Below, in pieces: positions 1,095 through 27,765 of a DNA stretch of 32,000 nt. The DNA comes from Erysipelotrichaceae bacterium (GTDB taxonomy: Bacteria > Bacillota_I > Bacilli_A > Erysipelotrichales > Erysipelotrichaceae). The DNA is taken from contig JAFRKI010000009.1 in NCBI GenBank assembly GCA_017431825.1, forward strand, positions 69,198 through 101,197. The letters are read 5' to 3'. How positions within the stretch are numbered: the first letter of the stretch is position 1; every line of letters begins with the position of its first letter. Position numbers and translations under genes: made by a program. The notes beneath the pieces were generated by a model that did no database searches, was not told the DNA's origin, and saw only the letters and a list, made by a program, of their open reading frames with translations.

Positions 1095-2708
1095 ATGAAA
1101 AGTATACCAATAGTAGTAGGCATAACTGGACATAGATTACTAAGAAAAAGCGATTATCCATTGCTTAAAGAAAGAGTAAGAACTGAATTGTCTCAAATAA
1201 AGGGATTATGTCCCAATTCTTCTTTAGTATTATTAGATTCAATAGCGTCTGGAGTGGATTCTCTTTGTGCTGAAGTTGCTTTAGAACTTGGTTATGAATT
1301 AGTTGTACCGTTGCCATTTGAACAAGATGAATATACTAAAGACTTTGAGGGAGAGGATTTAATAGTCTTTAAAGAGTTAATAAATAAAGCAAGCAAGAAA
1401 TTTGAACTTACCTCTTTAAGCGAAAATAATAGAGATCATGGTTATTTAGAAGCTGGTCTTTACATAGTAAAACATTCACATATTCTTATTGCATTATGGG
1501 ATGGCGGAGAACCAAAGCCTAATGGATGTGCAACTGCCGAAGTTGTTGACTTTGCTATGAGGGGAACAGATGAATCGAAAATAGTGCCGACTCCTATTAC
1601 GACCATAATTCACATTTATGCACCGAGAGCATCTGCGAAGGAAATAAAGAACGTTGGTGAAACTACAATTTATGAGAATAAGCAGAGTTCGATGTTCGAA
1701 TGCCTGTTTATGACTGATGAATTTAATAAAGAAAGCATTAATAGTGATTATGATAATTCTCTTGTTGACGAAGATACTCTAAAAGGACTGGATGTTCAGT
1801 TGAGTTATTACAACGACTTATATAAAAAAGCAGACAGCTTATCATCTTTTTATCAGAAAAAATATCTGAGTTCTTTAAAGCTGATATCCTTACTTAGTTC
1901 TTTCCTGGCGCTTAGCTATCTTCTTTATGATGAAATGGAGCTAAAGATCATGTCTTTGGTACTGATCTGTTTGATCATCACAGTAGCTGTTTATTTGCCA
2001 ACAAGGCCGAAGAAAGGAAAGTGGCACGAGAAGTACCTATCATATAGAATGTTAGCTGAAAGTCTGAGGATTCAGTTTTTTACATTTGCATGTGATGTAA
2101 AAAGAAATGTAGCAGATTTGTTTTCTTGGTCTACCAGAGAAGGAAACAACTGGACCTATAAAGCACTTAAGGTCATAGAACCAGTTGAGATCAATAATCT
2201 GTTTAAAGACCGAAGAGTATTAGAAACATGGATAAACGAACAACTCGATTATCATAAAAAAGCATATAAGAAGAACGATGAAAGTTTAAAAAGAAACAAT
2301 ACATATTCAGATATTTTGCTGTTAATGACTGTTTCATTATATTTAATCGTTGTTATGTTGGAACTTATGTTTCCTGTTTTCATGAACAAGATATTGTTGA
2401 CTCTAAACAATGAATTTCTGTTTATAAATAAGGGAACTGAACTTGATGTTAGGGGAATGTTTAAAATACTGACCGGTATCGTGGCAGCATCAGCTTTATT
2501 GTTGGCAAATTATTATGGTAAACTATCTTTAGATAATAAAGAAGATGATCACAAAAGATACACATCATTATATGTGGAGGCAAACAAAGTTTTAAGCAAT
2601 CCTACAGATGAACTTATTTGGGAATTAGCCAGAGAAGAGTTATTAATCAACAGCGCCTGGCTAACATATTCAAAGGAGAACGATTCAAACTTCTTAGATA
2701 TATTTTAG
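1095..2708 (+). CDS. SLOG-like nucleotide-sensor domain fused to two SLATT-like 2TM modules (4 TM helices); predicted membrane effector
   Basis: Residues 1-160 read IVVGITGHR...SGVDSLCAEVALELG...ILIALWDGGEPKPNGCATAEVVDFA, a Rossmann-like SLOG (LOG/DprA/YpsA-type) glycine-rich signature. TM pairs lie at about aa 259-301 and 404-473. The first pair is followed by WHEKYLSYRMLAESLRIQFF and the second is preceded by QLDYHKKAYKKNDESLKR, which are SLATT-type flanking helices. Confidence 0.55.
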   Translation: MKSIPIVVGITGHRLLRKSDYPLLKERVRTELSQIKGLCPNSSLVLLDSIASGVDSLCAEVALELGYELVVPLPFEQDEYTKDFEGEDLIVFKELINKASKKFELTSLSENNRDHGYLEAGLYIVKHSHILIALWDGGEPKPNGCATAEVVDFAMRGTDESKIVPTPITTIIHIYAPRASAKEIKNVGETTIYENKQSSMFECLFMTDEFNKESINSDYDNSLVDEDTLKGLDVQLSYYNDLYKKADSLSSFYQKKYLSSLKLISLLSSFLALSYLLYDEMELKIMSLVLICLIITVAVYLPTRPKKGKWHEKYLSYRMLAESLRIQFFTFACDVKRNVADLFSWSTREGNNWTYKALKVIEPVEINNLFKDRRVLETWINEQLDYHKKAYKKNDESLKRNNTYSDILLLMTVSLYLIVVMLELMFPVFMNKILLTLNNEFLFINKGTELDVRGMFKILTGIVAASALLLANYYGKLSLDNKEDDHKRYTSLYVEANKVLSNPTDELIWELAREELLINSAWLTYSKENDSNFLDIF

Positions 2709-2716
2709 GAATTACA

Positions 2717-4132
2717 ATGAACCACGAAGTTTTTATAAGTTATTCCAATAAGGATAAGAACGTAGCAGATGCGATAGTTAACCGCTTTGAATCCAGCGGT
2801 TTAAAGTGTTGGTATGCTCCAAGAGATATCAATCCTGGAAGCGAATGGGCGGAATCGATCGTTGAAGCCATTAAAGCTTCGAAAAAGATGATCCTTATCT
2901 TTACTGATTATTCCAACGCTTCAAAGCAGGTAGTCAGAGAAGTAGAGACAGCGATCAACAGCGGAGTGGTCGTTATTCCTTTTAAACTGACAGCCAGTAA
3001 TCCGTCAGGATCCATGGAGTATTACCTTTCGACTCTGCACTGGCTTGATGCCATGGATAAACCTTTAGACAACGCCATCAATGATCTGAAGGAAATGGTC
3101 ATAAATATTGATGCTTCAAAAAGCTATGTGCAGAAAAAGAAAAGAAATTTGAAGACAATCATAATATCATCGATACTAGTTTTAGCCATGATAGTTTCCG
3201 GTATCTTCTTCATAATTACAAATAAGAACAAGAATAATGAAAGTGATGTTTTTATCCCTGTTGATTATAATGAAAAGAATATTAATAATTGTTTGAATAG
3301 CAACCTTGTCTACTATTATGATGATGAAAACCTTTATTATAATTATTTATTATGGTTAGATGACGAAGGAGAAACCATTCCATATCCTCTTATCTTTGTT
3401 ACAAGTGAAAGAGATTTTTTATGGAATATAGCTGATCCTAATAAACTTGTTTGTATTAAACAAACGTCAAACTTTGCTGCTACAAAAGATTTTATATTTG
3501 ATGCTCCTGATAGCGGAGGCATCATTAGACATGATGTTTTGTCTGGTGAAGAAATAACTATTTATACTAATAACTGTTCAAATCTTTTAATTAACGGGGA
3601 TTGGTTGTTGTTTATTGATCTTTCTAATAATCAATTAATGAGAATAAGCTTTGATGGGTCTATAGTTGAACAATTTGACGGAGTATATGCAAGAAGTTTC
3701 TTTGTACATGATAAGAGAATCTTTTTTATTTCCAATGACGGTACTTTATGTATTTATGATAGCGGAGATATAATAAATACAAATAATAACAATATTATAA
3801 ATATGTGTTATGGCGACAGCAATTTATATCTTTACTGTTCAGTGGGCAACGGGATATATAGTGTTCCAATCAAAAGAAGGGAAGCTTTGCCAGAATACAT
3901 AACATCCATTGAAGATGAATTGACCTTTGACTTTACATACTGGAACAACAAACTATATTATATTAACGAAGATAAAAAAATACATGAATTAGATTTAATA
4001 ACCAAGGCAGATCATACAATAAGTACCCAGTATGAATTTGCTGTAGATATTAGTATTGTTAACGGAAGTATTTATGTAATGACGGCAGATTCGGAGAACA
4101 ACGCATATATTGAAATAATTGAGTTACAATGA
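2717..4132 (+). CDS. TIR domain - single TM - beta-propeller-like (DUF5050/TolB-like) protein, paralog 1
   Basis: The start is taken at the ATG at 2717 (MNHEVFISYSNKDK...), after an AGGA at -11 and 8 nt past the upstream stop. The 2618 start in the ORF track would overlap the previous gene by 91 nt. The TIR_2-type motifs are FISYSNKD, CWYAPRDINPG, IFTDYSNASKQVVREVETAI (candidate catalytic Glu about E75) and HWLDA. A TM helix lies at about aa 147-168, preceded by KKKRNLK. The C-terminal roughly 290 aa carries about 6 repeats such as NGDWLLFIDLSNNQLMRISFDGS and WNNKLYYINEDKKIHELDL. Confidence 0.7.
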   Translation: MNHEVFISYSNKDKNVADAIVNRFESSGLKCWYAPRDINPGSEWAESIVEAIKASKKMILIFTDYSNASKQVVREVETAINSGVVVIPFKLTASNPSGSMEYYLSTLHWLDAMDKPLDNAINDLKEMVINIDASKSYVQKKKRNLKTIIISSILVLAMIVSGIFFIITNKNKNNESDVFIPVDYNEKNINNCLNSNLVYYYDDENLYYNYLLWLDDEGETIPYPLIFVTSERDFLWNIADPNKLVCIKQTSNFAATKDFIFDAPDSGGIIRHDVLSGEEITIYTNNCSNLLINGDWLLFIDLSNNQLMRISFDGSIVEQFDGVYARSFFVHDKRIFFISNDGTLCIYDSGDIINTNNNNIINMCYGDSNLYLYCSVGNGIYSVPIKRREALPEYITSIEDELTFDFTYWNNKLYYINEDKKIHELDLITKADHTISTQYEFAVDISIVNGSIYVMTADSENNAYIEIIELQ

Positions 4133-5553
4133 ACCACGAAGTATTTATAAGTTATTCAAACAAGGACAAAAATGTGGCAGATGCGATAGTAAATCGCTTT
4201 GAATCCGGTGGTTTAAAGTGTTGGTATGCGCCTAGAGACATTAATCCTGGAAACGAATGGGCTGAATCTATTGTCAAGGCCATTAAAGCTTCAAAGACCA
4301 TGGTCCTTATTTTTACTGATTATTCTAATGCTTCAAAACAGGTAATTAGAGAAGTTGAAACTGCTATCAATAATGGAGTTGCCATTATTCCTTTCAAACT
4401 GACCGCCAGTAAGCCGTCAGGATCCATGGAATACTACCTTTCGACTTTACATTGGCTAGATGCCATGAACACCCCTCTAGACAATGCTATAAATGATTTG
4501 AAAGAAATGGCTCAAAATTTGAATAATTCAAAAAGTTTTGTTCAGAAAAAGAAGAAGAACAAAAAGACAATTATTATCACGTCAATACTGATTGTAGCTT
4601 TGATAGTTATCGGAATCTTCTTCATAATTTCAAATAAGAACAACAATAAAGAAAGCGATGTATTTATCCCTGTTGATTACTGTGAAAAGAATATAAACTA
4701 TTGTTTAAGTAAAAATGTTGTCTATTATTATGACAATGAAAACTTCTATTTATGCTATTTATATAATGGTGAAGACGGTATTTCATATCCATTACCTACC
4801 TCTATGGTTTTGGATATGAAAGAGAGTGATTTTTCTAAGGACGCAAATTTTGCAAATTATTTCGTTGCTCTTAATCCTTTCTTTAGTTGTGCGGCAACAA
4901 AAGATTACATTTTTATAGCTAACTCCAAAGGAGTTATTAGATATGAAGTATCTTCTGAAGAAGAAATAACCGTATATAATAAAGACGCTGAGAATTTATG
5001 TATTAATGGAGATTGGCTATTATTCATAGATTCAGATACAAAACAATTAATGAGAGTAAATTTCGATGGTTCGAAAATTGAAACTTTTAATGATGTTTAT
5101 GCAACGAGTTTCTTTATCCATGATAATAGAATTTATTTTATTTCCAATGATGAGGAATTATGCATATATGATAAAGGAGTAATAACAAAAGCCGACATAC
5201 AAGGCGGTTTCAGCCAAATGTGTTTTGACAATGATAATAGTATTTATGTATTTAATGGTTATAATAGGGCTTTTTACAGAATAGATCTAGATGGTAGCTT
5301 TAATCCTGAATTAGTCTATGTGTCCGAGAATACAATAGTTCCGTGGAATCTGTCCTTTTGGAATGGGAATCTTTATTATTCAGACATAGATTATAGAATC
5401 TGTGAACTCGACTTAGAAACTCAGCGGATAAATGATGTTCCAACAGAGCATAAGTATACAGTTATATTTAATATTATTGATGGACATATTTATGCCTTTA
5501 CCATGGATGAAATTTCAAAATATGAATATACAGAAATAATTGAATTACAGTAA
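4129..5553 (+). CDS. TIR domain - single TM - beta-propeller-like protein, paralog 2
   Basis: The architecture matches 2717..4132. Its ATG overlaps the upstream stop (ATGA at 4129-4132). By hand count the TIR part is about 90% identical to paralog 1 (12 differences in the first 125 aa). The C-terminal repeat domain is much more diverged, but both end in EIIELQ. Confidence 0.7.
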   Translation: MNHEVFISYSNKDKNVADAIVNRFESGGLKCWYAPRDINPGNEWAESIVKAIKASKTMVLIFTDYSNASKQVIREVETAINNGVAIIPFKLTASKPSGSMEYYLSTLHWLDAMNTPLDNAINDLKEMAQNLNNSKSFVQKKKKNKKTIIITSILIVALIVIGIFFIISNKNNNKESDVFIPVDYCEKNINYCLSKNVVYYYDNENFYLCYLYNGEDGISYPLPTSMVLDMKESDFSKDANFANYFVALNPFFSCAATKDYIFIANSKGVIRYEVSSEEEITVYNKDAENLCINGDWLLFIDSDTKQLMRVNFDGSKIETFNDVYATSFFIHDNRIYFISNDEELCIYDKGVITKADIQGGFSQMCFDNDNSIYVFNGYNRAFYRIDLDGSFNPELVYVSENTIVPWNLSFWNGNLYYSDIDYRICELDLETQRINDVPTEHKYTVIFNIIDGHIYAFTMDEISKYEYTEIIELQ

Positions 5554-5623
5554 ACTGTGTTTTAATAATTTTTATTTGTGAAAGTACTTATGTTTGATTG
5601 TTAATGAGAATAGGAAAGAGATT

Positions 5624-6349
5624 ATGACTACTATTATTGTTTTTTTAGCAGTATTGCCATCACTTGTATTGTTATTCTACATTTATAAAAGAGACTCAAT
5701 TAACAAGGAACCGAAGAGTCTTTTATTAAAATTGTTTGTCCTTGGTTGCTTATCGGTTATTCCTATAATAATAGCTGAATTTTTTGTTGTGGATTTAATG
5801 GATATTTATATTTTCGATAATACTTTATATAATCTTGTGGATGCTTTCGTTTGTGCTGCTTTGGTTGAAGAATCGATTAAATTCATCGTTACAAAATTGA
5901 CTATTTGGAAAAACAAAGCTTTTGATTCAACATTTGATGGAATGGTCTACTGTGCTTTTGTATCAATGGGCTTTGCCACGGTAGAAAACATAATATACTG
6001 CCTTTTCTTTGGCCTACCTACAGTTTTTTCTCGAATGTTTACTTCTATACCCGGCCATTTTTCTTTTGCTATTGTGATGGGCTTTTTCATATCAAAAGCC
6101 AAATATGAAGAGACCAAAGGCAAAAAACAAGAAATAAACACTAACAAAAGTAGAAAACTTCTAGCGTGTTCATTAATTATCCCTGTTATTCAACATGGAT
6201 TCTATGATTTTTGTTTGGTTCAAGATAGCAGAGTCCTGTTTTTTGTATTTATCCTAGTAGTTGTTTTCTCGTATTTAATAATTCTCATTATTGTGCATAG
6301 AGAACATAAAAGGGACACTTTGTTTTATGAAGACGATAGATTATTGTAA
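5624..6349 (+). CDS. PrsW-family intramembrane metalloprotease
   Basis: This is a polytopic membrane protein. Its N-terminus LPSLVLLFYIYKRDSINKEPKSLL, the motif VEESIKF (EExxK) and the motif QHGFYDF (HxxxD) are the PrsW signature motifs. I prefer the ATG at 5624, after AGGAAAGAG, over the TTG at 5594. Confidence 0.65.
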   Translation: MTTIIVFLAVLPSLVLLFYIYKRDSINKEPKSLLLKLFVLGCLSVIPIIIAEFFVVDLMDIYIFDNTLYNLVDAFVCAALVEESIKFIVTKLTIWKNKAFDSTFDGMVYCAFVSMGFATVENIIYCLFFGLPTVFSRMFTSIPGHFSFAIVMGFFISKAKYEETKGKKQEINTNKSRKLLACSLIIPVIQHGFYDFCLVQDSRVLFFVFILVVVFSYLIILIIVHREHKRDTLFYEDDRLL

Positions 6350-6845
6350 AAAGATTTTTTATGAAGCAAGTTGTTTTTATGAAGAGTCAAGTTCTACTTT
6401 TGAAAAGGTTTTAAAGTGTTCTCTATATTATGACGAAAATAACCAACCAGTTTTAGAACGTGATGCATTTTATTATTTCACATTTGTAATTGTTAATGGT
6501 GTTTTTGCTTGCGAATTATTTCTAAAGTCATTGATTTGTTACAAAACAAATAACGAGATTCAGGCAAATAGAACTCATTCATTAAAGAAACTAATCAATC
6601 TGTTAAGCAAAGATGATAGGGAAATAATAATGGAGACATTTGACAAGAACGAAATAGATGAAAGCAGTTTTAATTCCAAAATTGATGAAATTGATACAGC
6701 TTTCGTTGATTGGAGATATGTTTTTGAGGAAGGAAAGCACAGGTCGGTTGATTTAGTATTCTTGGATCATTTGCTTGGAATCTTAAGGTACATTGCCACT
6801 GAGGCATTTGAAAATGATAATAAAAAGCATTCAGATCCGGTCTGA
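6327..6845 (+). CDS. hypothetical all-alpha protein, tentatively HEPN-like
   Basis: The start is taken at the ATG at 6327 (MKTIDYCKK), overlapping the prsW-like stop by 23 nt. The motifs ACELFLKSLI ... NRTHSLKKLINLL ... FVDWRYVFE resemble HEPN-type helices. A canonical Rx4-6H spacing is not evident. Confidence 0.3.
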   Translation: MKTIDYCKKIFYEASCFYEESSSTFEKVLKCSLYYDENNQPVLERDAFYYFTFVIVNGVFACELFLKSLICYKTNNEIQANRTHSLKKLINLLSKDDREIIMETFDKNEIDESSFNSKIDEIDTAFVDWRYVFEEGKHRSVDLVFLDHLLGILRYIATEAFENDNKKHSDPV

Positions 6846-6850: not shown

Positions 6851-6861
6851 TTAAATACAGT

Positions 6862-7167
6862 TTAATCGTTTCTGTCGGTCTGTTTATAATCCAACGGCAC
6901 GATGGCCAGCGTTTTTCCTAATGCGAGTAGCACTTTCAATACCGTGTCGATCCTTGGAGAAGTATGGCCTTTTTCCATTCTGGCAATTACCGGCTGGCTT
7001 ACTCCGCATAATTCCTCGAGTTCTTTCTGACTGATCTTTTTTTCGTTACGGGCTTTGATCAGTTCACACATTAAAGCAACTCTCAGATCGCTTTCGGCAA
7101 TTTCTTCAGGCGTGAATATCTCTTTTTCTACTTCTTCCCAGCTTTGACCTATAGGGCTGTTTTTCAT
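6862..7167 (-). CDS. XRE-family helix-turn-helix antitoxin (HigA-like)
   Basis: KKISQKELEELCGVSQPVIARMEKGHTSPRIDTVLKVL is a classic XRE HTH. The gene overlaps the upstream toxin gene by 4 nt. Confidence 0.8.
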   Translation of the reverse strand: MKNSPIGQSWEEVEKEIFTPEEIAESDLRVALMCELIKARNEKKISQKELEELCGVSQPVIARMEKGHTSPRIDTVLKVLLALGKTLAIVPLDYKQTDRND

Positions 7168-7508
7168 TCTCCGTCACCTCTTTCTTTTATCTCTTTCAGT
7201 TCTTTCTTCGCACGTAAGATCTCTCTTCGCGGTGTCTTTTGAGTATTTTTTATAAAATGATGCAACAGGTAGTAGCTTTCTTCACTTCCGGCAACGAATA
7301 GTATCCTGTCTCTTAATGGCCTCAGTTCCCATATTTCATCCTGAAGATGCCTGACAAACGGCATATCTGCCTTGGTTCCTTGCATCTCAAGGATCTTGAT
7401 GTATTCCCGGATCTTTTCAAGTTTTATGCGGGCATCTTTTCCATTCTGGTCAGCCAGTTCCTTAAGATATTCCCTGAACGGCTGTTTTCCGTTTCTGTCT
7501 CTATACAG
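7164..7508 (-). CDS. Gp49/HigB-like (RelE/ParE superfamily) toxin; the start codon is unclear
   Basis: The ORF track starts at the ATG at 7385. The same frame stays open up to a TAA at 7541..7539. That upstream stretch encodes LYRDRNGKQPFREYLKELADQNGKDARIKLEKIREYIKILE, the usual N-terminal half of Gp49-like toxins. An AAAGGAGAAG Shine-Dalgarno lies at 7519..7510. The only start-like codon after it is the CTG at 7508..7506. Confidence 0.55.
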   Translation of the reverse strand: MYRDRNGKQPFREYLKELADQNGKDARIKLEKIREYIKILEMQGTKADMPFVRHLQDEIWELRPLRDRILFVAGSEESYYLLHHFIKNTQKTPRREILRAKKELKEIKERGDGE

Positions 7509-9964: not shown

Positions 9965-10040
9965 TGGCGGTGCATACGGGAATCGAACCCGTGATCTCCT
10001 CCGTGACAGGGAGGCATGTTAACCGCTACACCAATGCACC
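9965..10040 (-). tRNA. tRNA-Asp (GTC)
   Basis: The reverse complement folds as a cloverleaf. The acceptor stem is GGTGCAT/ATGCACC, the anticodon loop is CTGTCAC, the T-loop is GGTTCGATTCC, and the 3' CCA is encoded. Confidence 0.9.
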
Positions 10041-10149
10041 ATTACATTAGTTGCTACTTAATAATAAACTATTTTATCCCTTTATTCAAGTATGAAGAGT
10101 TTCTTTTTTTCATAAATAATGTTTTAATCAAATTGTAAAGGAAAGAGCT

Positions 10150-11031
10150 ATGGAATATACGGCTAGAAGCGAATATATCGATATATTCTTCGATGCCGTC
10201 AGTGCCGGTACCTTCGATCTGCTGATGCCGGATAATACTGATGTGATGTTTTTTGATCTGCTTTTATCCTTCGGCAATATAGCGGATGTAAATGACTTTG
10301 AATCAAGAAGAAAGGACTATCTTTCCATAGTTCCAAAGTTCCATGACAAAGCCATCACCGATAATATCTGGTGGGGAAGCTTTGCGAGAAACAATGGGAT
10401 CGACAGGCTGAGATCATCCGGTTCCAAGATCAGGATCTGGGCCAGCAAGAGAGCTTCCGATGATCTGTGCGGACTTTATTATCTCTGCAGCGAATTGACG
10501 GACAATGATCTGTATCTCGTCGATATTCCGATGAACGGCGACAGCAGAGTCAACTACAACGATGTGATCTGTTACCTCAGCGGCAACTCGGACGGAACCT
10601 TCAATATGATAGATCCAAGCGAAAAGGAAGCGGAATACTACAATGATTTCCATAAGGGCATCATCTTCAATCGAATAAATGACGACAAAAAGAAAGAGTA
10701 CGCAGATAAGTGGCGGAAACTCGTGGAAGAGAACTCTGACTTAAGAACATATGACAGGGGAGTGGTGACATCCTATTACTATGATGACTACTATGATGTA
10801 CTGCTGAGGATGACCGGCAGTAAGCAGTTCCTTAAATACAGTTCCGCTCCCGAGTTTCTCATATCCCTCAATGCTTCATACGATCTCAATATCTGGCAGA
10901 TACAGGCCACCATATCCGATATGGCTGATAAAGGAGCCTTCATGGTACTGGGAGAACTGGAGATCGATCCCGGTGCACCGGCTACCGATTACTATCTCAT
11001 AGCCAACAAGAACTACAGCACCAGAAACTGA
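10150..11031 (+). CDS. hypothetical protein, DUF1835/DUF3658-like
   Basis: KIRIWASKRASDDLCGLYYLCSEL and ADKWRKLVEENSDLRTYDRGVVTSYYYDDYYDVLL resemble the DUF1835 and DUF3658 signature regions. The function is unknown. Confidence 0.4.
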   Translation: MEYTARSEYIDIFFDAVSAGTFDLLMPDNTDVMFFDLLLSFGNIADVNDFESRRKDYLSIVPKFHDKAITDNIWWGSFARNNGIDRLRSSGSKIRIWASKRASDDLCGLYYLCSELTDNDLYLVDIPMNGDSRVNYNDVICYLSGNSDGTFNMIDPSEKEAEYYNDFHKGIIFNRINDDKKKEYADKWRKLVEENSDLRTYDRGVVTSYYYDDYYDVLLRMTGSKQFLKYSSAPEFLISLNASYDLNIWQIQATISDMADKGAFMVLGELEIDPGAPATDYYLIANKNYSTRN

Positions 11032-11052
11032 TATCCGATATGCAGCAAAACA

Positions 11053-11080
11053 AAAGCATTCCCTACGGAATGCTTTATTT
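11053..11080. terminator. rho-independent terminator
   Basis: AAAGCATTCC-ctac-GGAATGCTTT forms a perfect 10-bp stem followed by ATTT. Confidence 0.7.
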
Positions 11081-11084
11081 CTGA

Positions 11085-11158
11085 TGGAGCAGATGAAGGG
11101 AATCGAACCCTCGTGTCGACCTTGGCAAGGTCGCGTTCTACCATTGAACTACATCTGC
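11085..11158 (-). tRNA. tRNA-Gly (GCC)
   Basis: The reverse complement is GCAGATGTAGTTCAATGGTAGAAC...TTGCCAA...GGTTCGATTCCC...CATCTGCTCCA. The anticodon is GCC. Confidence 0.9.
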
Positions 11159-11164
11159 AGATTC

Positions 11165-11256
11165 TGGCGAAGATGGAGGGATTTGAACCCTCGCGCCGGA
11201 TAACCCGACCTAAGGCCTTAGCAGGGCCTCCTCTTCAGCCACTTGAGTACATCTTC
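11165..11256 (-). tRNA. tRNA-Ser (GCT)
   Basis: The reverse complement starts GAAGATGTACTCAAGTGG. The anticodon loop is CTGCTAA, a long variable arm is present, the T-loop is GGTTCAAATCC, and CCA is encoded. Confidence 0.9.
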
Positions 11257-12814: not shown

Positions 12815-12890
12815 GCGCCTGTAGCTCAATGGATAGAGTGTTTGATTCCGATTCAAAAGGCTGTAGGTTCGATTCCTATCAGGCGCGCCA
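12815..12890 (+). tRNA. tRNA-Arg (CCG)
   Basis: GCGCCTGTAGCTCAATGGATAGAG...TTCCGAT...GGTTCGATTCC...CAGGCGCGCCA. The anticodon is CCG. Confidence 0.9.
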
Positions 12891-16448: not shown

Positions 16449-16474
16449 ATACATGTCCTTATAATAAAGAACAG

Positions 16475-16506
16475 CGGTCATCAGAAATGATGGCCGTTTT
16501 TATTTT
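16475..16506 (+). terminator. rho-independent terminator
   Basis: CGGTCATC-agaaat-GATGGCCG (one G-U pair) is followed by TTTTTATTTT. Confidence 0.65.
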
Positions 16507-16573
16507 CTGAAAAATAATTTAGGAAAATCATTAAAACCTGTCAATAAAGAAGTAGGGGAAAGAAAGGAGAAAC

Positions 16574-16738
16574 ATGAAATCGTTTTTTGAAGAATACGGC
16601 TTTGTGATGCTGGCGGCAGTCGTGGTGATCGCTCTTATCGCCATGACCTCCAACGTGGGAGAAGCCATCGAAGGCAACATCACCAGTCTTATCACCAGCT
16701 TTTCAACGAAGATCAGCAGCAGTTTGAACGGTGTTTAA
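16574..16738 (+). CDS. Flp-like type IVb pilin without a conventional leader (54 aa)
   Basis: This ORF is not in the ORF track because it is short. A GAAAGGAGA Shine-Dalgarno lies 4 nt before the ATG. The product MKSFFEEYGFVMLAAVVVIALIAMTSNVGEAIEGNITSLITSFSTKISSSLNGV aligns with mature Flp pilins (xxxxEYGLIAALIAV...LG..l...f..i) starting at residue 3. Confidence 0.6.
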   Translation: MKSFFEEYGFVMLAAVVVIALIAMTSNVGEAIEGNITSLITSFSTKISSSLNGV

Positions 16739-16760
16739 ACTCGTTAAGGAATAGCAGCGG

Positions 16761-17831
16761 ATGGGCATAGAGATAAAGGAAGAACTGTTCAAGGAACTGT
16801 GGCCGTTCATTCTGGATGAGAACGTGACCGACATCAAGTGGAACGGGACGTCACTCTGGATAACGGATCTAAGCAGGGGCCGGTATATGGTCAAGGACAT
16901 CAGTCTCTCGGAAGAATGGCTGAGGATATTCACCAACCTGATCGCCAATTCGGTCAATGAGAATTTCAACATATCCCGTCCCTCGCTCAAAGCGGAAACC
17001 AGAGAACTGCGAATTCAGGCTGTTCACGGCAGTGTATCGGAGGAAGGCAGGATCTGCCTGGCCATACGCAAGACCCCGAGCTGTGCCAGGCTCTTACACC
17101 AGGATCTCTTAAAGAGCGGTTATGCGGATGATTTCGTACTGAAACTCCTGCCTTGTCTCATGCGAGGACATCTTTCCGGTGTCATAACCGGTGATGTCGG
17201 AGCCGGCAAGACCGAACTCGAGAAATACCTGTGCTCTTTCATACCGGACTCTGATCCGATCATAACAGTTGAAGATACTCTGGAAATGAAGCTCAAGACG
17301 CTTTATCCGGAAAAGGATATTTACTCGCTAAAGATCAGTGACGCCTATTCCGCTGAACAGGCCATCAGGGATGCCCTGAGACTCAATACCAAATGGCTCA
17401 TCATCTCCGAATCAAGAGGAAGAGAGATCCTGAGGATCATCGAAGGTGCCTCATCAGGCTGTGTCGCTCTGACGTCCATCCATACGGAAAACGTCTGGGA
17501 AGTGCCTGACCGCATCCTCAACATGGCCGGAGACAATACGCGAAACAGTCTCGAGAATGATGTCTTTACCTTCTTTGACTATGCCATCAAGGTCAAGGCT
17601 GACTATTCGAACAGCGGTATCCGAAGAAGCATCGATCAGATATGCTTCTTCGACCGCAAGGATAAACAGAACTCCGTCACGGTCATCGTGAGGGACGGCA
17701 AGCCCGTCAAGGCCATGATACCGGAGAGGATCTACAGCAGATTTTATGAAAACCGGGAAAGGGAATTCATGGAAGCCTATTCAAAATTCTTAAGGAAGAA
17801 ACAGAGGAAAGAAAATGAAGGATTTGATTAA
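16761..17831 (+). CDS. type II/IV secretion-family ATPase (CpaF/TadA/VirB11-like)
   Basis: NVTDIKWNGTSLWITDLSRG and LAIRK are present. Walker A is GDVGAGKTE, the Asp box is ITVEDTLEM, Walker B is WLIISESRGRE, and the His box is LTSIHTEN. Confidence 0.8.
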   Translation: MGIEIKEELFKELWPFILDENVTDIKWNGTSLWITDLSRGRYMVKDISLSEEWLRIFTNLIANSVNENFNISRPSLKAETRELRIQAVHGSVSEEGRICLAIRKTPSCARLLHQDLLKSGYADDFVLKLLPCLMRGHLSGVITGDVGAGKTELEKYLCSFIPDSDPIITVEDTLEMKLKTLYPEKDIYSLKISDAYSAEQAIRDALRLNTKWLIISESRGREILRIIEGASSGCVALTSIHTENVWEVPDRILNMAGDNTRNSLENDVFTFFDYAIKVKADYSNSGIRRSIDQICFFDRKDKQNSVTVIVRDGKPVKAMIPERIYSRFYENREREFMEAYSKFLRKKQRKENEGFD

Positions 17832-19311
17832 AAGATACAGTATCAGAGAACTGAAGAACGATATCAGCAGATACGGCTTCAGTTATTCGACGAAAGACTT
17901 TCTGATCGAAATGATCGTTATCATCGGCATCGTGCTCTTTGTAGCCTATATCTCAAGACTGAGATACAGGTACATGCTGGCGCTGGTGCTGATCGCAATG
18001 GCCCTGATTCCCCCGCTGATCCAGGCATGGTTCCGTCAGAACTATAACATCCGCAGGTTTACGATGCTTTCGGACTATCTTTCCAACATCATTCCCATTT
18101 TCATGCAGAAGACCAAGATCCGTTATACGCTGGGTGAGCTCTTTGACATAACGAGCGGTCTCATGAAGGATACCATAGGCAAAGCTCTCGATTATCTCGA
18201 CAATACGGTCGATGACCCTGATCTCAACCGCAATGCCCTCAAGATCATCGAAGATGAATTCCCCAATTCCCGGGTAAAGTCGGCTCATAAGCTGATCCTG
18301 AGCATCGAAGCATCCAATTCCCTTAACTATGAAGACGTCTGCGAGAATCTCTATGACGATATCGAAAAGTGGATCAAAAGAGTCTATACCTTCCAGAAGG
18401 ATCTGAAGAACCGCAGGACCAAGCTGCTGATCCTGTGTCTGGCAACGCTGTTTATGAATTCCGTCTTTGTCTACTTCTATGTGGCCAATGACTATTTCAT
18501 CGGCTTTACCGAAAGCCCCGTGTATCAGATCTCCACACTGATCTTTATCGCTATCATCCTTGTCACAATAACCGTCATCATGATCAGATTAAACGGCGAA
18601 TGGCTGATAAACGACATGACCTACCGCAAGGATGAGGAACTCAGAAGGAAGTACATCCTCTATAAGGACGGCCAGCCCAAGGCCAGGATCGTTACGATAC
18701 TGGTCTGTCTGATCTGCGTAGCCGGAGGCGTGTATCTCGGGATAATAAACAGGATACCCGCATCCTTCCTGTGCTTTGGCATAGCGCTGATGGTCTTCTT
18801 CGATTCACCGGCCAGATACCATTCGGCCTATAAGAGCCTCAGCAAGAACCTGACCATCGAGTTTCCCGTCTGGCTCAGAGAGATATCCCTGGCCTTAAAC
18901 AGCTATACGGTACTCAATGCGATCGAAAACTCCCAGAACATAACTTCCTATCCTTTGAGAAAGGAACTCAGAAAATTCCTCGATGAAGCCAAAAAGGACC
19001 CGACATCCATCAGACCTTACAATGAATTCCTCAGTGAATTCGATCTGGAAGATGCCCGTTCATCAATGAAGGTCCTCTATGCGATCCAGAACATCGGCAA
19101 GGAGGACGTCAAGGTCAGAGTATCCAATCTGATACTGAGAAACCAGGAAATGCTGGACAAGGCCGAAAGCATCAGAAACAACGATTCCATCAGCGGCATC
19201 GAAGCCCTGGGCTATGTGCCGGTAGCCGTCTTCTCGGGACAGATGCTGATATCGATGTTTGCGATGTTTACCTACATGATGAACCTCGTATCAGGAGCAA
19301 TAAATCTATGA
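17815..19311 (+). CDS. polytopic platform protein with two T2SSF (TadB/TadC/GspF-like) repeats
   Basis: It overlaps the ATPase gene by 17 nt and has about 7-8 hydrophobic helices. Each of two cytoplasmic helical regions (aa about 85-200 and about 345-460) is followed by a TM segment, as in T2SSF repeats. Confidence 0.55.
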   Translation: MKDLIKRYSIRELKNDISRYGFSYSTKDFLIEMIVIIGIVLFVAYISRLRYRYMLALVLIAMALIPPLIQAWFRQNYNIRRFTMLSDYLSNIIPIFMQKTKIRYTLGELFDITSGLMKDTIGKALDYLDNTVDDPDLNRNALKIIEDEFPNSRVKSAHKLILSIEASNSLNYEDVCENLYDDIEKWIKRVYTFQKDLKNRRTKLLILCLATLFMNSVFVYFYVANDYFIGFTESPVYQISTLIFIAIILVTITVIMIRLNGEWLINDMTYRKDEELRRKYILYKDGQPKARIVTILVCLICVAGGVYLGIINRIPASFLCFGIALMVFFDSPARYHSAYKSLSKNLTIEFPVWLREISLALNSYTVLNAIENSQNITSYPLRKELRKFLDEAKKDPTSIRPYNEFLSEFDLEDARSSMKVLYAIQNIGKEDVKVRVSNLILRNQEMLDKAESIRNNDSISGIEALGYVPVAVFSGQMLISMFAMFTYMMNLVSGAINL

Positions 19312-19733
19312 GGATAATGGTAAGGATGATGGGACTTTCCATCATCGGTTTCTGTACCTGCCTGATGCTGATGCACATCTTCGATCTCAACGTCCGCCTC
19401 GATGAGCTCAACAAGATCTCGTCACTGGCGATGTCCAATACTCAGATCGTGGTCCAGGAAAACATCGAAGACAGACTCTATGGCACAGACAATGCCCGCT
19501 TAAGGATAGACAGCAATGACAAATATATCAGCCTCTACAAGGAAAACCTCAGTAAGCTCATAAGCACCGACAGCACCTATGAAGTGAGCGATTACCTGGC
19601 TGATCATGAGCGGGGATTATTATATGTGAAGGTCGACTGCAGCTATAAGACCTTGAACGGCAACACGAAGACTTTAAGCAGAAAACTGCTGAACATAATC
19701 GATGTCAATGAAAACTATGAAGAGAATGCTTAA
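19308..19733 (+). CDS. pilin-like / minor pilin candidate (141 aa), function unknown
   Basis: It has an ATGA overlap with the platform gene. The N-terminus MRIMVRMMGLSIIGFCTCLMLM shares the M-[KR]-x-hydrophobic pattern and single N-terminal TM of the other small proteins in the operon. Confidence 0.35.
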   Translation: MRIMVRMMGLSIIGFCTCLMLMHIFDLNVRLDELNKISSLAMSNTQIVVQENIEDRLYGTDNARLRIDSNDKYISLYKENLSKLISTDSTYEVSDYLADHERGLLYVKVDCSYKTLNGNTKTLSRKLLNIIDVNENYEENA

Positions 19734-21069
19734 ATGCCTGCTGGTAACAGCAGCGATTATCATCCAGTGTGCAGGCACCGCCATGGCCGAAGGGGAACCG
19801 CCTGACGGCTACAGCGAATGGAACACGGAAAGCAGCGGCGATCCGAATGAGATATCCGCCATCCAGTACGGCAGACAGCTGCCAAAGGAATGGTCGGAGT
19901 GGTCGATCGAAGTTCCCGAATCTCCCTATCAGAAAGAAGGAGAGGAGCTGGAAAGACACTATGCCTATGACGGCGTCAGCTATTTCTGGAACAATGCCCG
20001 GGCCAAGACGCTGTTCGAGTGGAACTTTCCTTCGAAGTCAAGGATCGTCTACTTCTATGCGGATGTCGATACCTATGTCGACAGGACCTACACCAACTAT
20101 TCCGGTCCGCCCTTACAGCTGTACTGCGATGGCAGACAGGTAGCCAGTACCGGACGCCACAACCATCTGAACAACTGGAATCCCGATATCGACTGCGAGT
20201 GCAGTGTCCTCAAGCTTACGATGTCAGCCGATACCGGCAACGGACGCAATGCGACCTGCATCGTCGGTACCTGGGCGACCACATATCTGAAGACCTATTC
20301 CTATGTCATAAGCTGGGAAGAACCGGGAGACTGGCGCTTCGATGAAGCCTATCCGCATCTCTACGGTGAGGAAAGCCAGATACCGGCCGAAAGGACCGTC
20401 TATTCAAGTCCTATCGTCTATCATATCAGCTACGACTTTGACGGCGGGGAAGCCATAGGTGAAGCGACTGATTCCTATACTGTCCTTGATGAAGTTGATC
20501 TGCCCGGAGCCCATAAGGCAGGGTATGATTTTATCGGCTGGTATGAAGGAGATACACTGATCGAAAGGATCGAAAAAGGTACGTTCAGGAACATAAGCCT
20601 CATAGCCGTATATGACCGTCACAAGCCGAGCATCTTCACCGGTTATGCTTTCTTTGATGAAGATGACCGGCACATCGGGATCAGTGATCTGCTGGATATC
20701 ATCAAGGCATCCGCAAGCGATGAGGTGGACGGTGACATCACCGGCAGGATAAAGGTCGAAAGCATCACCTATGAAAAGAGCGGCACGACCGTCAGCAGGC
20801 CTGCATATCTGGACGTCGGCACCAGTCAGAGCGTCATCATCAGGCTCTCCGTCACCAACAGCGGCGGCAAGAAGGCCGAGATCGAAAGACGCTACTACAT
20901 CTTAGGCAAAGGCACAGACATCGAAAGAGACGATGACGTCAGGGTCTATTCCCGTTTCATTTCTGAAGATTTCAGAGAGACCCTCAGTCCGGGTTCGGTC
21001 TGGCGCAATTATGACTACATGGAAGTATTGGAAGCAGCTTATATGAAAGCTAGAAAGGATCAAGGATGA
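19702..21069 (+). CDS. secreted protein with a Listeria-Bacteroides repeat (Flg_new) and an Ig-like (DUF5011-like) domain
   Basis: The Sec signal peptide ends in AGTAMA|EG. YHISYDFDGGEAIG...HKAGYDFIGWYEGDTLI is a Flg_new-type repeat. ASASDEVDGDITGRIKVESITYEKSG...SVTNSGGKKAE is DUF5011/Ig-like. Several in-frame ATGs (19702, 19708, 19717, 19726) leave the start uncertain. Confidence 0.6.
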   Translation: MSMKTMKRMLKCLLVTAAIIIQCAGTAMAEGEPPDGYSEWNTESSGDPNEISAIQYGRQLPKEWSEWSIEVPESPYQKEGEELERHYAYDGVSYFWNNARAKTLFEWNFPSKSRIVYFYADVDTYVDRTYTNYSGPPLQLYCDGRQVASTGRHNHLNNWNPDIDCECSVLKLTMSADTGNGRNATCIVGTWATTYLKTYSYVISWEEPGDWRFDEAYPHLYGEESQIPAERTVYSSPIVYHISYDFDGGEAIGEATDSYTVLDEVDLPGAHKAGYDFIGWYEGDTLIERIEKGTFRNISLIAVYDRHKPSIFTGYAFFDEDDRHIGISDLLDIIKASASDEVDGDITGRIKVESITYEKSGTTVSRPAYLDVGTSQSVIIRLSVTNSGGKKAEIERRYYILGKGTDIERDDDVRVYSRFISEDFRETLSPGSVWRNYDYMEVLEAAYMKARKDQG

Positions 21070-21212
21070 GAAGACTGTTTGCCCATTACGGATTACTGAT
21101 GCTGGCGCTTGTCGGAGGCTTTACGGCCATCACGATATTCATCAGCGTCTTCCTGAATGAAGAAAACGCCATCGGCAATATCCTGGGACTGTGGCTGTCT
21201 CATCTGATGTAA
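21066..21212 (+). CDS. small Flp-like pilin paralog (48 aa)
   Basis: This ORF is not in the ORF track. It has an ATGA overlap with the upstream stop. The product is MRRLFAHYGLLMLALVGGFTAITIFISVFLNEENAIGNILGLWLSHLM. Confidence 0.5.
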   Translation: MRRLFAHYGLLMLALVGGFTAITIFISVFLNEENAIGNILGLWLSHLM

Positions 21213-21213
21213 T

Positions 21214-21645
21214 ATGAAAAATCTGTTTGAAGAATACGGGGAATCGATCATTTCCCTGATCTGTTCACTGGTGATCGTTACCATGTTCATATCGGTCTTC
21301 CTTATCGAAGTGCTGGGGACCAATGCCGGCATGATAGGCGACAATACGGTCGAAGCCAGGCCGGCAGCTCCTGAAGATGAGATCAGGATCAGAGCCTTCA
21401 GTGTCAGGGACATCCTGATAACCCAGGGCGAAGAGATAAACTGGAACGGAAGGATCGAAGCGACCAACAACCGCGGCGATTACAGCGGCAGCGACGAGGA
21501 CATCTCTTCCTATGTCAGCCTTTACGGCGATGTCGATACTTCAAGTCCGGGCGTTAAGGAAGCGACCTATGTCCTCAGATACAACGGCGAGACCAGATTC
21601 GCCAAAGCCAGGGTGATCGTTACGCCAAGGGAGGAAGAACTCTAA
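21214..21645 (+). CDS. pilin-like N-terminus fused to an Ig-like (DUF5011-like) domain; minor pilin / tip adhesin candidate
   Basis: The N-terminus MKNLFEEYGESIISLICSLVIVTMFISVF has the same motif as the 16574 pilin. The C-terminus SSYVSLYGDVDTSSPGVKEATYVLRYNGETRFAKARVIVT is Ig-like. Confidence 0.5.
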   Translation: MKNLFEEYGESIISLICSLVIVTMFISVFLIEVLGTNAGMIGDNTVEARPAAPEDEIRIRAFSVRDILITQGEEINWNGRIEATNNRGDYSGSDEDISSYVSLYGDVDTSSPGVKEATYVLRYNGETRFAKARVIVTPREEEL

Positions 21646-21971
21646 TGAAAAGCATGGTCGAACATATGACGACGATGATCATCATGATGGTGCTGATCTT
21701 CGTCTTCACCATCATCATCACTACCGGTCTGCAGATAGTAAATGCCAGACTCATCCATACCAATGCCATCGAAAGGATGCAGTCGTCATTCTACAACGTA
21801 CCGGTAAGCGATCTCAATGCCGAACTTGACGAAGGCTGGTACTTTGAAGTGAACGAGCTTTCCAGCGTCAAAACCCGCAAGGATTATGAAGTTACGCTCA
21901 ACTACATCATCAGGATGCCGCTGTTCAATGAAGGCGGCGTATACGGACGGATCGTGGGGTATGCCCGATGA
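21645..21971 (+). CDS. pilin-like / minor pilin candidate (108 aa)
   Basis: Its ATG (21645-21647) overlaps the upstream TAA stop (21643-21645) by 1 nt. The N-terminus is MKSMVEHMTTMIIMMVLIFVFTIIITTG, a single N-terminal TM. Confidence 0.35.
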   Translation: MKSMVEHMTTMIIMMVLIFVFTIIITTGLQIVNARLIHTNAIERMQSSFYNVPVSDLNAELDEGWYFEVNELSSVKTRKDYEVTLNYIIRMPLFNEGGVYGRIVGYAR

Positions 21972-22075
21972 GAGAACTGATCGGAGAATACCTGGAGACC
22001 ATCCTGGAACTGTGCATGGTGATCATGTTTACGGAGATGATATTCGTGATAATGAAAATGATTTTTGCGATTTAA
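21968..22075 (+). CDS. very small pilin-like protein (35 aa)
   Basis: This ORF is not in the ORF track. It has an ATGA overlap with the upstream stop. The product is MRELIGEYLETILELCMVIMFTEMIFVIMKMIFAI, with E-Y at positions 7-8 as in the other pilin-like genes. Confidence 0.35.
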   Translation: MRELIGEYLETILELCMVIMFTEMIFVIMKMIFAI

Positions 22076-22092
22076 CGTTTTACCTGTATAAT
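22065..22092 (+). promoter_or_regulatory. candidate promoter for the metG leader
   Basis: TTGCGA (22065-22070), a 16-nt spacer, then a consensus TATAAT (22087-22092) preceded by TG. Confidence 0.4.
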
Positions 22093-22104
22093 GATAGTTG
22101 GTAA

Positions 22105-22297
22105 CGAAGGATAGAGTAGCTGATGAAAGCTCATAGAGAGTCCTTGGGCGGTGGAAAAGGACAGCGGCAGCCAGCGAACATGGATCCGGAACCTCTGTCA
22201 CGATAGGTAGTGCCAGACGTGTACTCGCGTTAAGAGCTCAAGTTAAAAGTAAGGTGGTACCGCGCAGCTGCGCCCTTGTGTCACCTTTTTATTTTTT
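22105..22297 (+). promoter_or_regulatory. T-box riboswitch leader, Met specifier
   Basis: The AG-bulge AGAGAG lies at 22135-22140 and a distal-loop-like GGTGGAAA follows. The specifier-loop context is GCGAAC-ATG-G, with ATG at 22180-22182. The conserved T-box sequence AAGGTGGTACCGCG lies at about 22251-22264. A GC-rich hairpin plus TTTTTATTTTTT terminator follows, directly upstream of metG. Confidence 0.8.
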
Positions 22298-27676: not shown

Positions 27677-27765
27677 TGGCGCAGTGGGTGGGATTCGAAC
27701 CCACGGACCGTTGCCGGTCAAACGATTTCGAATCGTTCTCGTTATGACCACTTCGATACCACTGC
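27677..27765 (-). tRNA. tRNA-Ser (CGA)
   Basis: The reverse complement starts GCAGTGGTATCGAAGTGGTC. The anticodon loop is TTCGAAA, a long variable arm is present, the T-loop is GGTTCGAATCC, and CCA is encoded. Confidence 0.9.

Follow-up and report, generated by a model that had tools for sequence, protein, structure and literature searches.

An Erysipelotrichaceae operon for a putative, minimal Tad/Flp-related type IV filament with candidate leaderless pilins

Can a type IV pilin be made without a leader peptide? The question is raised by an operon at positions 16574-22075, forward strand, of a 32,000-nucleotide stretch of an Erysipelotrichaceae genome (contig JAFRKI010000009.1; hereafter the window), in which six pilin-like proteins carry a Glu-Tyr motif of the Flp type almost at their very start. 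Flp prepilins are cleaved by TadV at G/XXXXEY, and the mature pilin carries Glu5-Tyr6. Removal of the leader by an A24 aspartyl peptidase is regarded as universal and obligatory in type IV filament biogenesis. Prepilin leaders are described in a 2023 review as 'invariably' ending in Gly or Ala and as needing processing before assembly (PMC10191384). The initial annotation of the window saw only Met-Lys or Met-Arg ahead of this register, and proposed that the proteins are leaderless Flp-type pilins that need no dedicated peptidase, or else are processed after residue 2 by a different enzyme. We find that the operon is best explained as encoding a divergent and minimal type IV filament system, related to Tad/Flp, in monoderm gut bacteria, the Erysipelotrichaceae, with leaderless pilins, a reading to which we give an even chance. 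That the whole filament lineage lacks both prepilin leader and peptidase, its pilins being translated in an assembly-competent form and polymerised by a minimal ATPase and a fused orphan platform, is a proposal that we place just short of even.

The operon's nine genes adjoin one another or share a few bases. One encodes the major pilin, of 54 amino acids (aa), and five encode further pilin-like proteins; the others are for an ATPase of the T2SSE family, a polytopic membrane protein of 498 aa and a secreted protein with repeats. The features of the operon and its boundaries are as follows.

16473-16498, + strand: terminator-like hairpin, an 11-pair stem followed by a T-run, which ends the upstream DUF4015 gene and forms the 5' boundary of the operon
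16563-16569, + strand: ribosome-binding site AAAGGAG of the major pilin gene
16574-16738, + strand: major pilin, 54 aa, MKSFFEEYGF followed by a hydrophobic helix; Flp-like, no leader
16761-17831, + strand: assembly ATPase, 356 aa, T2SSE family (CpaF/VirB11/archaeal GspE-like), PF00437
17815-19311, + strand: polytopic membrane protein, 498 aa, candidate platform; no Pfam domain
19308-19733, + strand: minor pilin-like protein, 141 aa, MRIMVRMMGL; Arg/Lys in place of the acidic residue
19702-21069, + strand: secreted protein, 455 aa, with Listeria-Bacteroides repeat, PF09479
21066-21212, + strand: mini pilin-like protein, 48 aa, MRRLFAHYGL (orthologues: MRKLFSEYGL)
21214-21645, + strand: modular minor pilin-like protein, 143 aa, MKNLFEEYGE, with a C-terminal immunoglobulin (Ig)-like domain
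21645-21971, + strand: minor pilin-like protein, 108 aa, MKSMVEHMTT (orthologues: MKNMFEYMTT); register one residue shorter
21968-22075, + strand: mini pilin-like protein, 35 aa, MRELIGEYLE; E7-Y8, position 9 without Gly/Ala
22095-22280, + strand: T-box leader of metG (RF00230, 95.7 bits against a gathering score of 93); 3' boundary, outside the system

All six N-termini reported in the initial annotation are present exactly as given there, with starts at 16574, 19308, 21066, 21214, 21645 and 21968, and they share the pattern M-[KR]-x-[LFM]-[FIV]-x-E/H-Y/M followed by a hydrophobic helix; the 141-aa class deviates in carrying Arg or Lys where the other classes carry Glu. Counting from residue 3, four of the proteins do place E/H-Y at positions 5-6 and three of these also have Gly7; the 108-aa class is one residue out of this register and has E6-Y7 in its orthologues. 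The annotation had seen no upstream start that could supply a normal leader, and a comparison of start codons in 42 genes from 7 loci bears this out, as no longer leader is possible. Each of the six starts is the first ATG, GTG or TTG downstream of an in-frame stop; for the major pilin this stop is a TAG at 16553-16555, 6 codons 5' of the start, and in 7/7 loci it lies 0-8 codons upstream, with an AAAGGAG-like ribosome-binding site 5' of the major pilin start in each. One locus, L014, swaps ATG for GTG or TTG at the identical start position. Codons 2-10 vary synonymously while the amino acids are unchanged, and selection therefore acts on the protein.

A profile built from 18 homologues of the major pilin and searched against 1.84 billion cluster representatives (E ≤ 0.001) reveals a family of 406 clusters at 50% identity. 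Among the best 150 of these 406, profile position 1 falls on protein residue 1 in 145; of the other five, one is a fragment truncated at its 5' end, and four have an internal Met exactly at the place where the rest begin, which suggests that their starts were miscalled. In one relative, P0002, the gene call extends the pilin 32 residues upstream (MTVRNDG...RRHMKSFFEEYGF) with no Gly before the motif, an extension found in no other relative and probably likewise a miscalled start. Residue counts in 143 cluster representatives, the best members of the family, give M1 in 143, K2 in 141, F4 in 139, E6 in 120, E7 in 125, Y8 in 141, G9 in 143 and F10 in 124, and thus the consensus MK[SKA]F[FL]EEYGF from residue 1; residue 3 is variable (S/K/A/D/N/Q) and is Lys, Asp, Asn or Gln in 52/143. 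Residues 1-10 have the highest information content, both within the family and when pooled over the minor classes, and the C-terminus of the major pilin drops to ~40% identity. The block common to the paralogue classes spans residues 1-9 (to 10), comparable to the block from -1 to +5 in sets of ordinary pilins, and conservation at this place is what one would expect of a mature pilin N-terminus, not of a discarded leader. Nor is the shared pattern a chance resemblance: the same six classes show it again in the orthologous operons of loci L001, L003, L004 and L005, as well as in L007, L013 and L014, which are variants.

The conserved block lines up with Flp pilins. The major pilin aligns to Pfam Flp_Fap (PF04964) over residues 7-43 (profile 12-46; E = 0.013), and no Pfam family is matched more often in the family than Flp_Fap, with 32/143 members at E ≤ 0.1 and a best value of 0.0018, all of these matches being well below threshold. 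An hhalign comparison with an annotated Ralstonia Flp places E7-Y8-G9 on E19-Y20-G21, that is, on +5/+6/+7, and two canonical Flp pilins show EYG and EYA at this motif. These alignments therefore make the register proposed in the initial annotation a natural one, with residue 3 as +1 and Lys2 in the place of the Gly at -1. Measured against the Flp motif G/XXXXEY[GA], E-Y-G is in register, but the -1 residue is Lys/Arg2 rather than Gly and is preceded by Met alone. In the structure of the Caulobacter Tad pilus the conserved Flp motif includes Gly7, and Tyr6 lies under residue 1 of the next subunit and sets the subunit register (PMC10710030). On these alignments homology of the major pilin to Flp is likely, weak as the similarity is in absolute terms, and it shares its operon with a T2SSE-family ATPase. 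A search of PDB sequences with the pilin profile returned only spurious poxvirus matches.

Family members range from 54 to 573 aa in length, and about half of the relatives are 190-570 aa long with C-terminal modules that include DUF6273 (23), BspA-type leucine-rich repeats, Ig-like and lectin-like domains and Laminin_G_3 (P0263-P0408; L002:1178-2188). Since long members carry adhesin-type modules, the C-terminus would be extracellular, as is the pattern in modular pilins, and adhesion is by analogy the likely function because related major pilins carry such modules. Single relatives have other modules: one has a Peptidase_M23, and Hint/intein-type families occur in one member each. Among the minor proteins, the 143-aa class is modular in a similar way, with Big_3, Rib and Bact_surface_Ig-like domains recurring in its orthologues (Big_3 in L004 scores 22.1 bits against a cutoff of 21.2). 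The 141-aa protein has Arg or Lys at the acidic-residue position in orthologues too and is, by analogy, a candidate Glu-less tip or cap subunit; Glu5-less minor pilins cap the tip in other systems (PMC10191384). A match of this protein to TadF (E = 0.017) was not reproduced in four orthologues and was set aside, and its single-sequence AlphaFold2 (AF2) model was unusable (predicted local distance difference test, pLDDT, 49). The 455-aa protein matches PF09479 at 29.3 bits against a cutoff of 27, and its N-terminal hydrophobic segment is read as a Sec-type signal peptide, which makes it a candidate adhesin or accessory protein; it is kept at the same position in L001 and L003, and in L016 it corresponds to a 450-aa gene.

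The remaining two proteins are those expected to drive assembly. The ATPase matches PF00437 at 68 bits against a cutoff of 24.9 and so belongs to the T2SSE family, as do the ATPases of the type IV filament superfamily; its nearest PDB match is the archaeal GspE-type 2oap (1.6e-13), followed by VirB11 and CpaF. Its best NCBIfam match is the VirB11 equivalog TIGR02788, at 82 bits against a cutoff of 250; a TadA-like model is also below its cutoff, and the ComGA model gives 37 bits against 300. The nearest annotated ATPases, at ~30% identity, come from Tad-like loci on Listeria and Bacillus cereus-group plasmids. The 498-aa protein is modelled by AF2, from a 32-sequence alignment, as all-helical (pLDDT 86), and we read the model as two modules; each has a bundle of helices with hydrophobic helices on its flanks, which are putatively transmembrane as judged from hydrophobic stretches. 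This modelled layout resembles a fused TadB-TadC or a FlaJ-like protein. Its residues 257-489 match a protein of 244 aa that occupies the TadC position in the Tad-like locus of the B. thuringiensis plasmid pBMB64 (probability 96%, E = 4e-9), and we regard it as the candidate platform. Its N-terminal half gives a probability of 4% against the 305-aa protein of pBMB64 and, although aligned to its own C-terminal half at equivalent places, only 1.3%, so that an internal duplication is unsupported. Tblastn of this protein against plasmids gave no match, a PDB sequence search with its profile found nothing, and none of its 117 homologues has a Pfam domain; weak matches to PrgI, DUF2207_C and Spo7 among the homologues were judged to be chance. 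No Pfam or NCBIfam match to TadZ, TadV, RcpC/CpaB, separate TadB and TadC, or TadE/F/G was found in the operon, nor any match to ComGB or ComGC.

Several observations weigh against a Tad/Flp-related filament of leaderless pilins. The filament is a prediction from the genes. The major pilin scores 15.7 bits against Flp_Fap, below the gathering cutoff of 32.2, and the hhalign probability of its alignment with Ralstonia Flp is 23%. T2SSF (PF00482) was not found in a Pfam scan of 32 platform homologues, hhalign of the 498-aa protein against canonical TadB/C gives a non-significant probability of 3.9%, and Foldseek of its AF2 model against the PDB returns no match at E ≤ 0.001, the top rows being generic helical proteins. 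In the Caulobacter Tad pilus Ala1 packs on the Tyr6 of a neighbour, and two extra residues would have to fit there (PMC10710030). Erysipelotrichales commonly carry comG, and at least one has a canonical tad locus that includes tadV (PMC12786226); type IV filament loci such as MSH borrow a peptidase encoded elsewhere (PMC6668835). Lastly, Gly9-Phe10 followed by ~20 hydrophobic residues is a plausible A24 site.

This last site, together with the possibility of a borrowed peptidase, supports a different account, in which the proteins are class III prepilins with a 9-residue leader, M-K-x-F-F-E-E-Y-G, and a ComC/PilD/TadV-type A24 enzyme encoded elsewhere cuts after Gly/Ala9 to give a mature pilin that starts with Phe/Leu10 and has no Glu5. 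The initial annotation overlooked this site, and its statement that there is no Gly-containing cleavage site was too strong, as all 143 representatives of the major pilin have Gly9 and 124/143 have Phe10 after it; what stands of its leaderless interpretation is that the proteins are pilin-like, have no longer leader and keep the Flp register. Position 9 is Gly or Ala in 7/7 orthologues of the 48-aa class and in 7/8 of each of the 141-aa and 143-aa classes, in agreement with the rule for leader ends cited above, and the archaeal GspE-type best PDB match of the ATPase would suit such a product, given that archaeal pilins lack Glu5 (PMC10710030). We find a short leader, although the strongest rival, less likely than leaderless pilins. 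Position 9 is Leu, Val, Phe or Ile in all but one orthologue of the 35-aa class and mostly Thr in the 108-aa class, and most 143-aa orthologues would mature to an Asp or Glu N-terminus. The leader would need the very same length, 9 residues, throughout 143 diverse members and five paralogue classes, and the most conserved part of the protein would be discarded, unlike in known prepilins. Gly9 is already explained by the alignment as Flp Gly7, which is not a cleavage site (PMC10710030).

The search for known processing signals is consistent with this assessment. The PilFind motif, [GAS]-x4-[DE] plus 14 uncharged residues (PMC3244431), is matched by 0/6 window proteins and 0/143 family members, whereas two canonical Flp controls score at the correct Gly; a cut after Gly9 fails it for want of Asp or Glu at +5. 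Of a class III signal peptide, the hydrophobic helix and the acidic residue are present, and a Gly/Ala-ended leader before the Glu is not. Cleavage after residue 3 at an archaeal-type [KR][GA/S] site was also considered and rejected, as the 52/143 family members given above have Lys, Asp, Asn or Gln there, and in the minor classes this residue is not small. No Peptidase_A24 is encoded in the 32-kilobase (kb) window, in the 10 kb beyond each of its ends or in the 10-kb flanks of five related loci (L006-L008, L013 and L014), an absence that speaks for these searched regions and not for the whole genome.

The second proposal of the initial annotation, processing by another enzyme, would have a non-A24 protease or aminopeptidase remove Met-Lys, or the formyl-Met only, leaving residue 3 as +1 and Glu at +5. 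The register is exact for this, E7 being +5 when residue 3 is +1; Lys/Arg2 is nearly invariant and a possible recognition residue, and 1.8 kb upstream there is a gene for an M18 aminopeptidase, which is syntenic in L003. That gene belongs to the ordinary backbone of the chromosome and is missing from the variants on putative mobile elements, and no candidate protease is conserved inside the operon at any locus examined. Residue 3 is variable and provides no defined P1' position. Methionine aminopeptidase leaves Met in place before Lys or Arg, which also counts against such processing, and we consider it the least probable of the explanations.

It is also conceivable that no filament is made, and that the small proteins are single-pass subunits of a membrane complex driven by a VirB11/CpaF-like ATPase for secretion, DNA transfer or aggregation, linked to mobile elements and with only a convergent Flp motif. 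The sub-threshold Flp similarity, a platform without the T2SSF signature and an ATPase whose best NCBIfam match, far below cutoff, is VirB11 all fit this view, as do related loci that adjoin ParA/ParB, single-stranded DNA-binding protein (SSB) and AcrVA2-like genes, and nearest annotated relatives on conjugative plasmids of Listeria and Bacillus. We find neither VirB4 nor VirD4 in the window, nor a relaxase in or beside the operon, and the pBMB64 match links the membrane protein to a Tad-like locus. An abundant small subunit, several minor proteins that share its N-terminal helix and adhesin-fused majors together make up the architecture of type IV pilins, and a non-filament complex appears improbable to us.

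If the Tad/Flp-related, leaderless reading is right, a simple assembly scheme can be proposed. The free N-terminal amine and Lys/Arg2 would hold the N-terminus in the cytoplasm by the positive-inside rule, giving N-in/C-out insertion, and once inserted the pilins would be ready for assembly, without processing by an A24 enzyme. Acting together, ATPase and platform-like protein would then draw the pilins out of the membrane and pack them by their N-terminal helices into a fibre, in which E7, Y8 and G9 would do what Glu5, Tyr6 and Gly7 do in Flp. Priming or capping of the fibre might fall to the 141-aa protein that lacks the Glu, the 143-aa protein with its Ig domain, the 108-aa protein and both mini-pilins, the 141-aa protein perhaps as the tip cap, and the 455-aa secreted repeat protein could serve as adhesin or accessory.

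Related loci show how the operon is kept. An Erysipelotrichaceae metagenome-assembled genome encodes proteins identical to the 54-aa pilin and to the ATPase. In L001 and L003 it occupies the same chromosomal place, in the order M18 aminopeptidase, DUF4015 hydrolase, operon, metG; L004 and L005 have the same operon gene order, variants occur in L007, L013 and L014, and a remoter one in L006. The classes that recur across loci are the major pilin, the ~140-aa Glu-less protein, the 48-49-aa protein, the Ig-like modular protein, the 108-110-aa protein and the 35-aa protein, and the recurrent classes start M-[KR]-x-hydrophobic-hydrophobic-x-E-aromatic. Contigs with the operon in L002-L005 are binned as Treponema, Paratractidigestivibacter, Oscillospiraceae and a Methanomethylophilaceae archaeon, with GC (G+C fraction) of 0.31-0.33; these bins are probably contaminated or mis-binned, because all are low in GC, L003-L005 share the gene order and L003 keeps the Erysipelotrichaceae flanks (M18 peptidase, DUF4015, metG). 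The variants in L006, L013 and L014, and also in L007, adjoin genes of mobile-element type, namely ParA/ParB, an Eco57I-type enzyme, NrdD with an intein and AcrVA2-like genes, and the same neighbourhoods also hold SSB, an HNH gene and giant surface proteins. The system may thus travel on plasmids or integrative and conjugative elements; no relatives were found on viral contigs. Longer homologues of the ATPase and the platform exist, of up to 585 aa and 756 aa, the respective sizes being 536 and 733 aa in L006 and 383 and 610 aa in L013.

At the operon's 3' end, positions 22065-22092 match a sigma-70-like promoter, overlapping the 35-aa gene at its end, upstream of the metG T-box. Just past the 3' end of the window (L016:11763-13643) lie rnpA, yidC and jag, and because these genes follow, the pilus operon is probably close to the chromosomal origin region. 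Elsewhere, window positions 1095-6845 form a low-GC island (0.29-0.35, against ~0.48 elsewhere) whose genes encode two orphan proteins, of 537 and 184 aa, a tandem pair of TIR-domain paralogues and an intramembrane protease of the PrsW family. PADLOC reports only TIR-domain-level matches here (SAVED_TIR, ThsB-like, Aga_TIR), and the island could be a defence island of undescribed type. Directly after it, at ~6860-7360 on the reverse strand (L015:14686-15188), is a toxin-antitoxin-like pair of HTH_37/HTH_3 and Gp49-family genes. Five tRNA genes stand among housekeeping genes, three of them clustered at 9968-11256 on the reverse strand and the others at 12815-12887 and 27680-27765.

Leaderless pilins, if true, would break the rule that every type IV pilin has a cleaved, Gly/Ala-ended leader. 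Such a family would make it possible to ask what the leader is for, whether topology, the blocking of premature assembly or the making of an N-terminal amine, and would test the geometry of Glu5 and the N-terminus with two extra residues as well as the minimal size of a filament machine. Should cleavage after Gly9 prove true instead, a leader with a conserved Glu-Tyr and a bacterial major pilin without Glu5 would still be unusual. PilFind-style motifs, Pfam thresholds and T2SSF all miss the system (MacSyFinder/TXSScan models were not run), and Erysipelotrichaceae fibres in the gut and rumen may therefore be overlooked; many members carry adhesin modules, and the system may matter for host colonisation. 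Full-text searches of the literature returned no report of leaderless or peptidase-independent type IV pilins.

The closest known systems are the Tad/Flp pili (type IVc; Caulobacter Cpa, Aggregatibacter Tad), with which the operon shares a small, all-helical 54-aa major pilin with E-Y-G ahead of a hydrophobic stretch in the Flp register, an ATPase of the CpaF/VirB11 clade, and the organisation as one operon, which includes several genes for minor pilin-like proteins but none for a retraction ATPase. Unlike those systems, it has only Met-Lys/Arg in place of a hydrophilic, Gly-ended leader, Phe in place of Thr2 of the Flp motif, no detectable tadV, tadZ, rcpC/cpaB or tadE/F/G, with all family scores sub-threshold, and one fused 498-aa membrane protein, without the T2SSF Pfam signature, for TadB and TadC. 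Gram-positive tad-like loci without recognisable prepilin signal peptide motifs were described by Imam et al. in 2011; these keep tadZ, rcpC and tadV homologues, unlike our operon, and no N-terminus of the present kind is described there (PMC3244431). The Tad-like loci on Firmicutes plasmids (B. thuringiensis pBMB64, Listeria pFV5) have the closest annotated ATPases and membrane proteins that likewise lack Pfam T2SSF. They differ in having two separate membrane-protein genes and small candidate pilins with long hydrophilic N-terminal regions and no MKxFFEEYG start, and pBMB64 carries a SAF-domain protein and a second, AAA-family ATPase beside its T2SSE-family ATPase, which we read as RcpC-like and TadZ-like, respectively.

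Archaeal type IV pili of the Epd/Aap type resemble the present system in their ATPase (2oap), and their pilins lack Glu5, which would fit cleavage after Gly9. Archaeal leaders can be short, with Lys or Arg at -2. Archaeal prepilins need Gly or Ala at -1 and a FlaK/PibD/EppA peptidase; in our proteins residue 3 is often Lys, Asp or Asn, and there is no [KR][GA] site near the start. The modular pilins of monoderms, for example PilB/PilC of Streptococcus sanguinis, are of type IVa, with long cleaved leaders and PilB/PilC/PilD machinery, and in this differ from ours; they likewise carry adhesin modules on an N-terminal helix, as do the DUF6273, BspA-type leucine-rich repeat, Ig-like and lectin-like members of the family described here.

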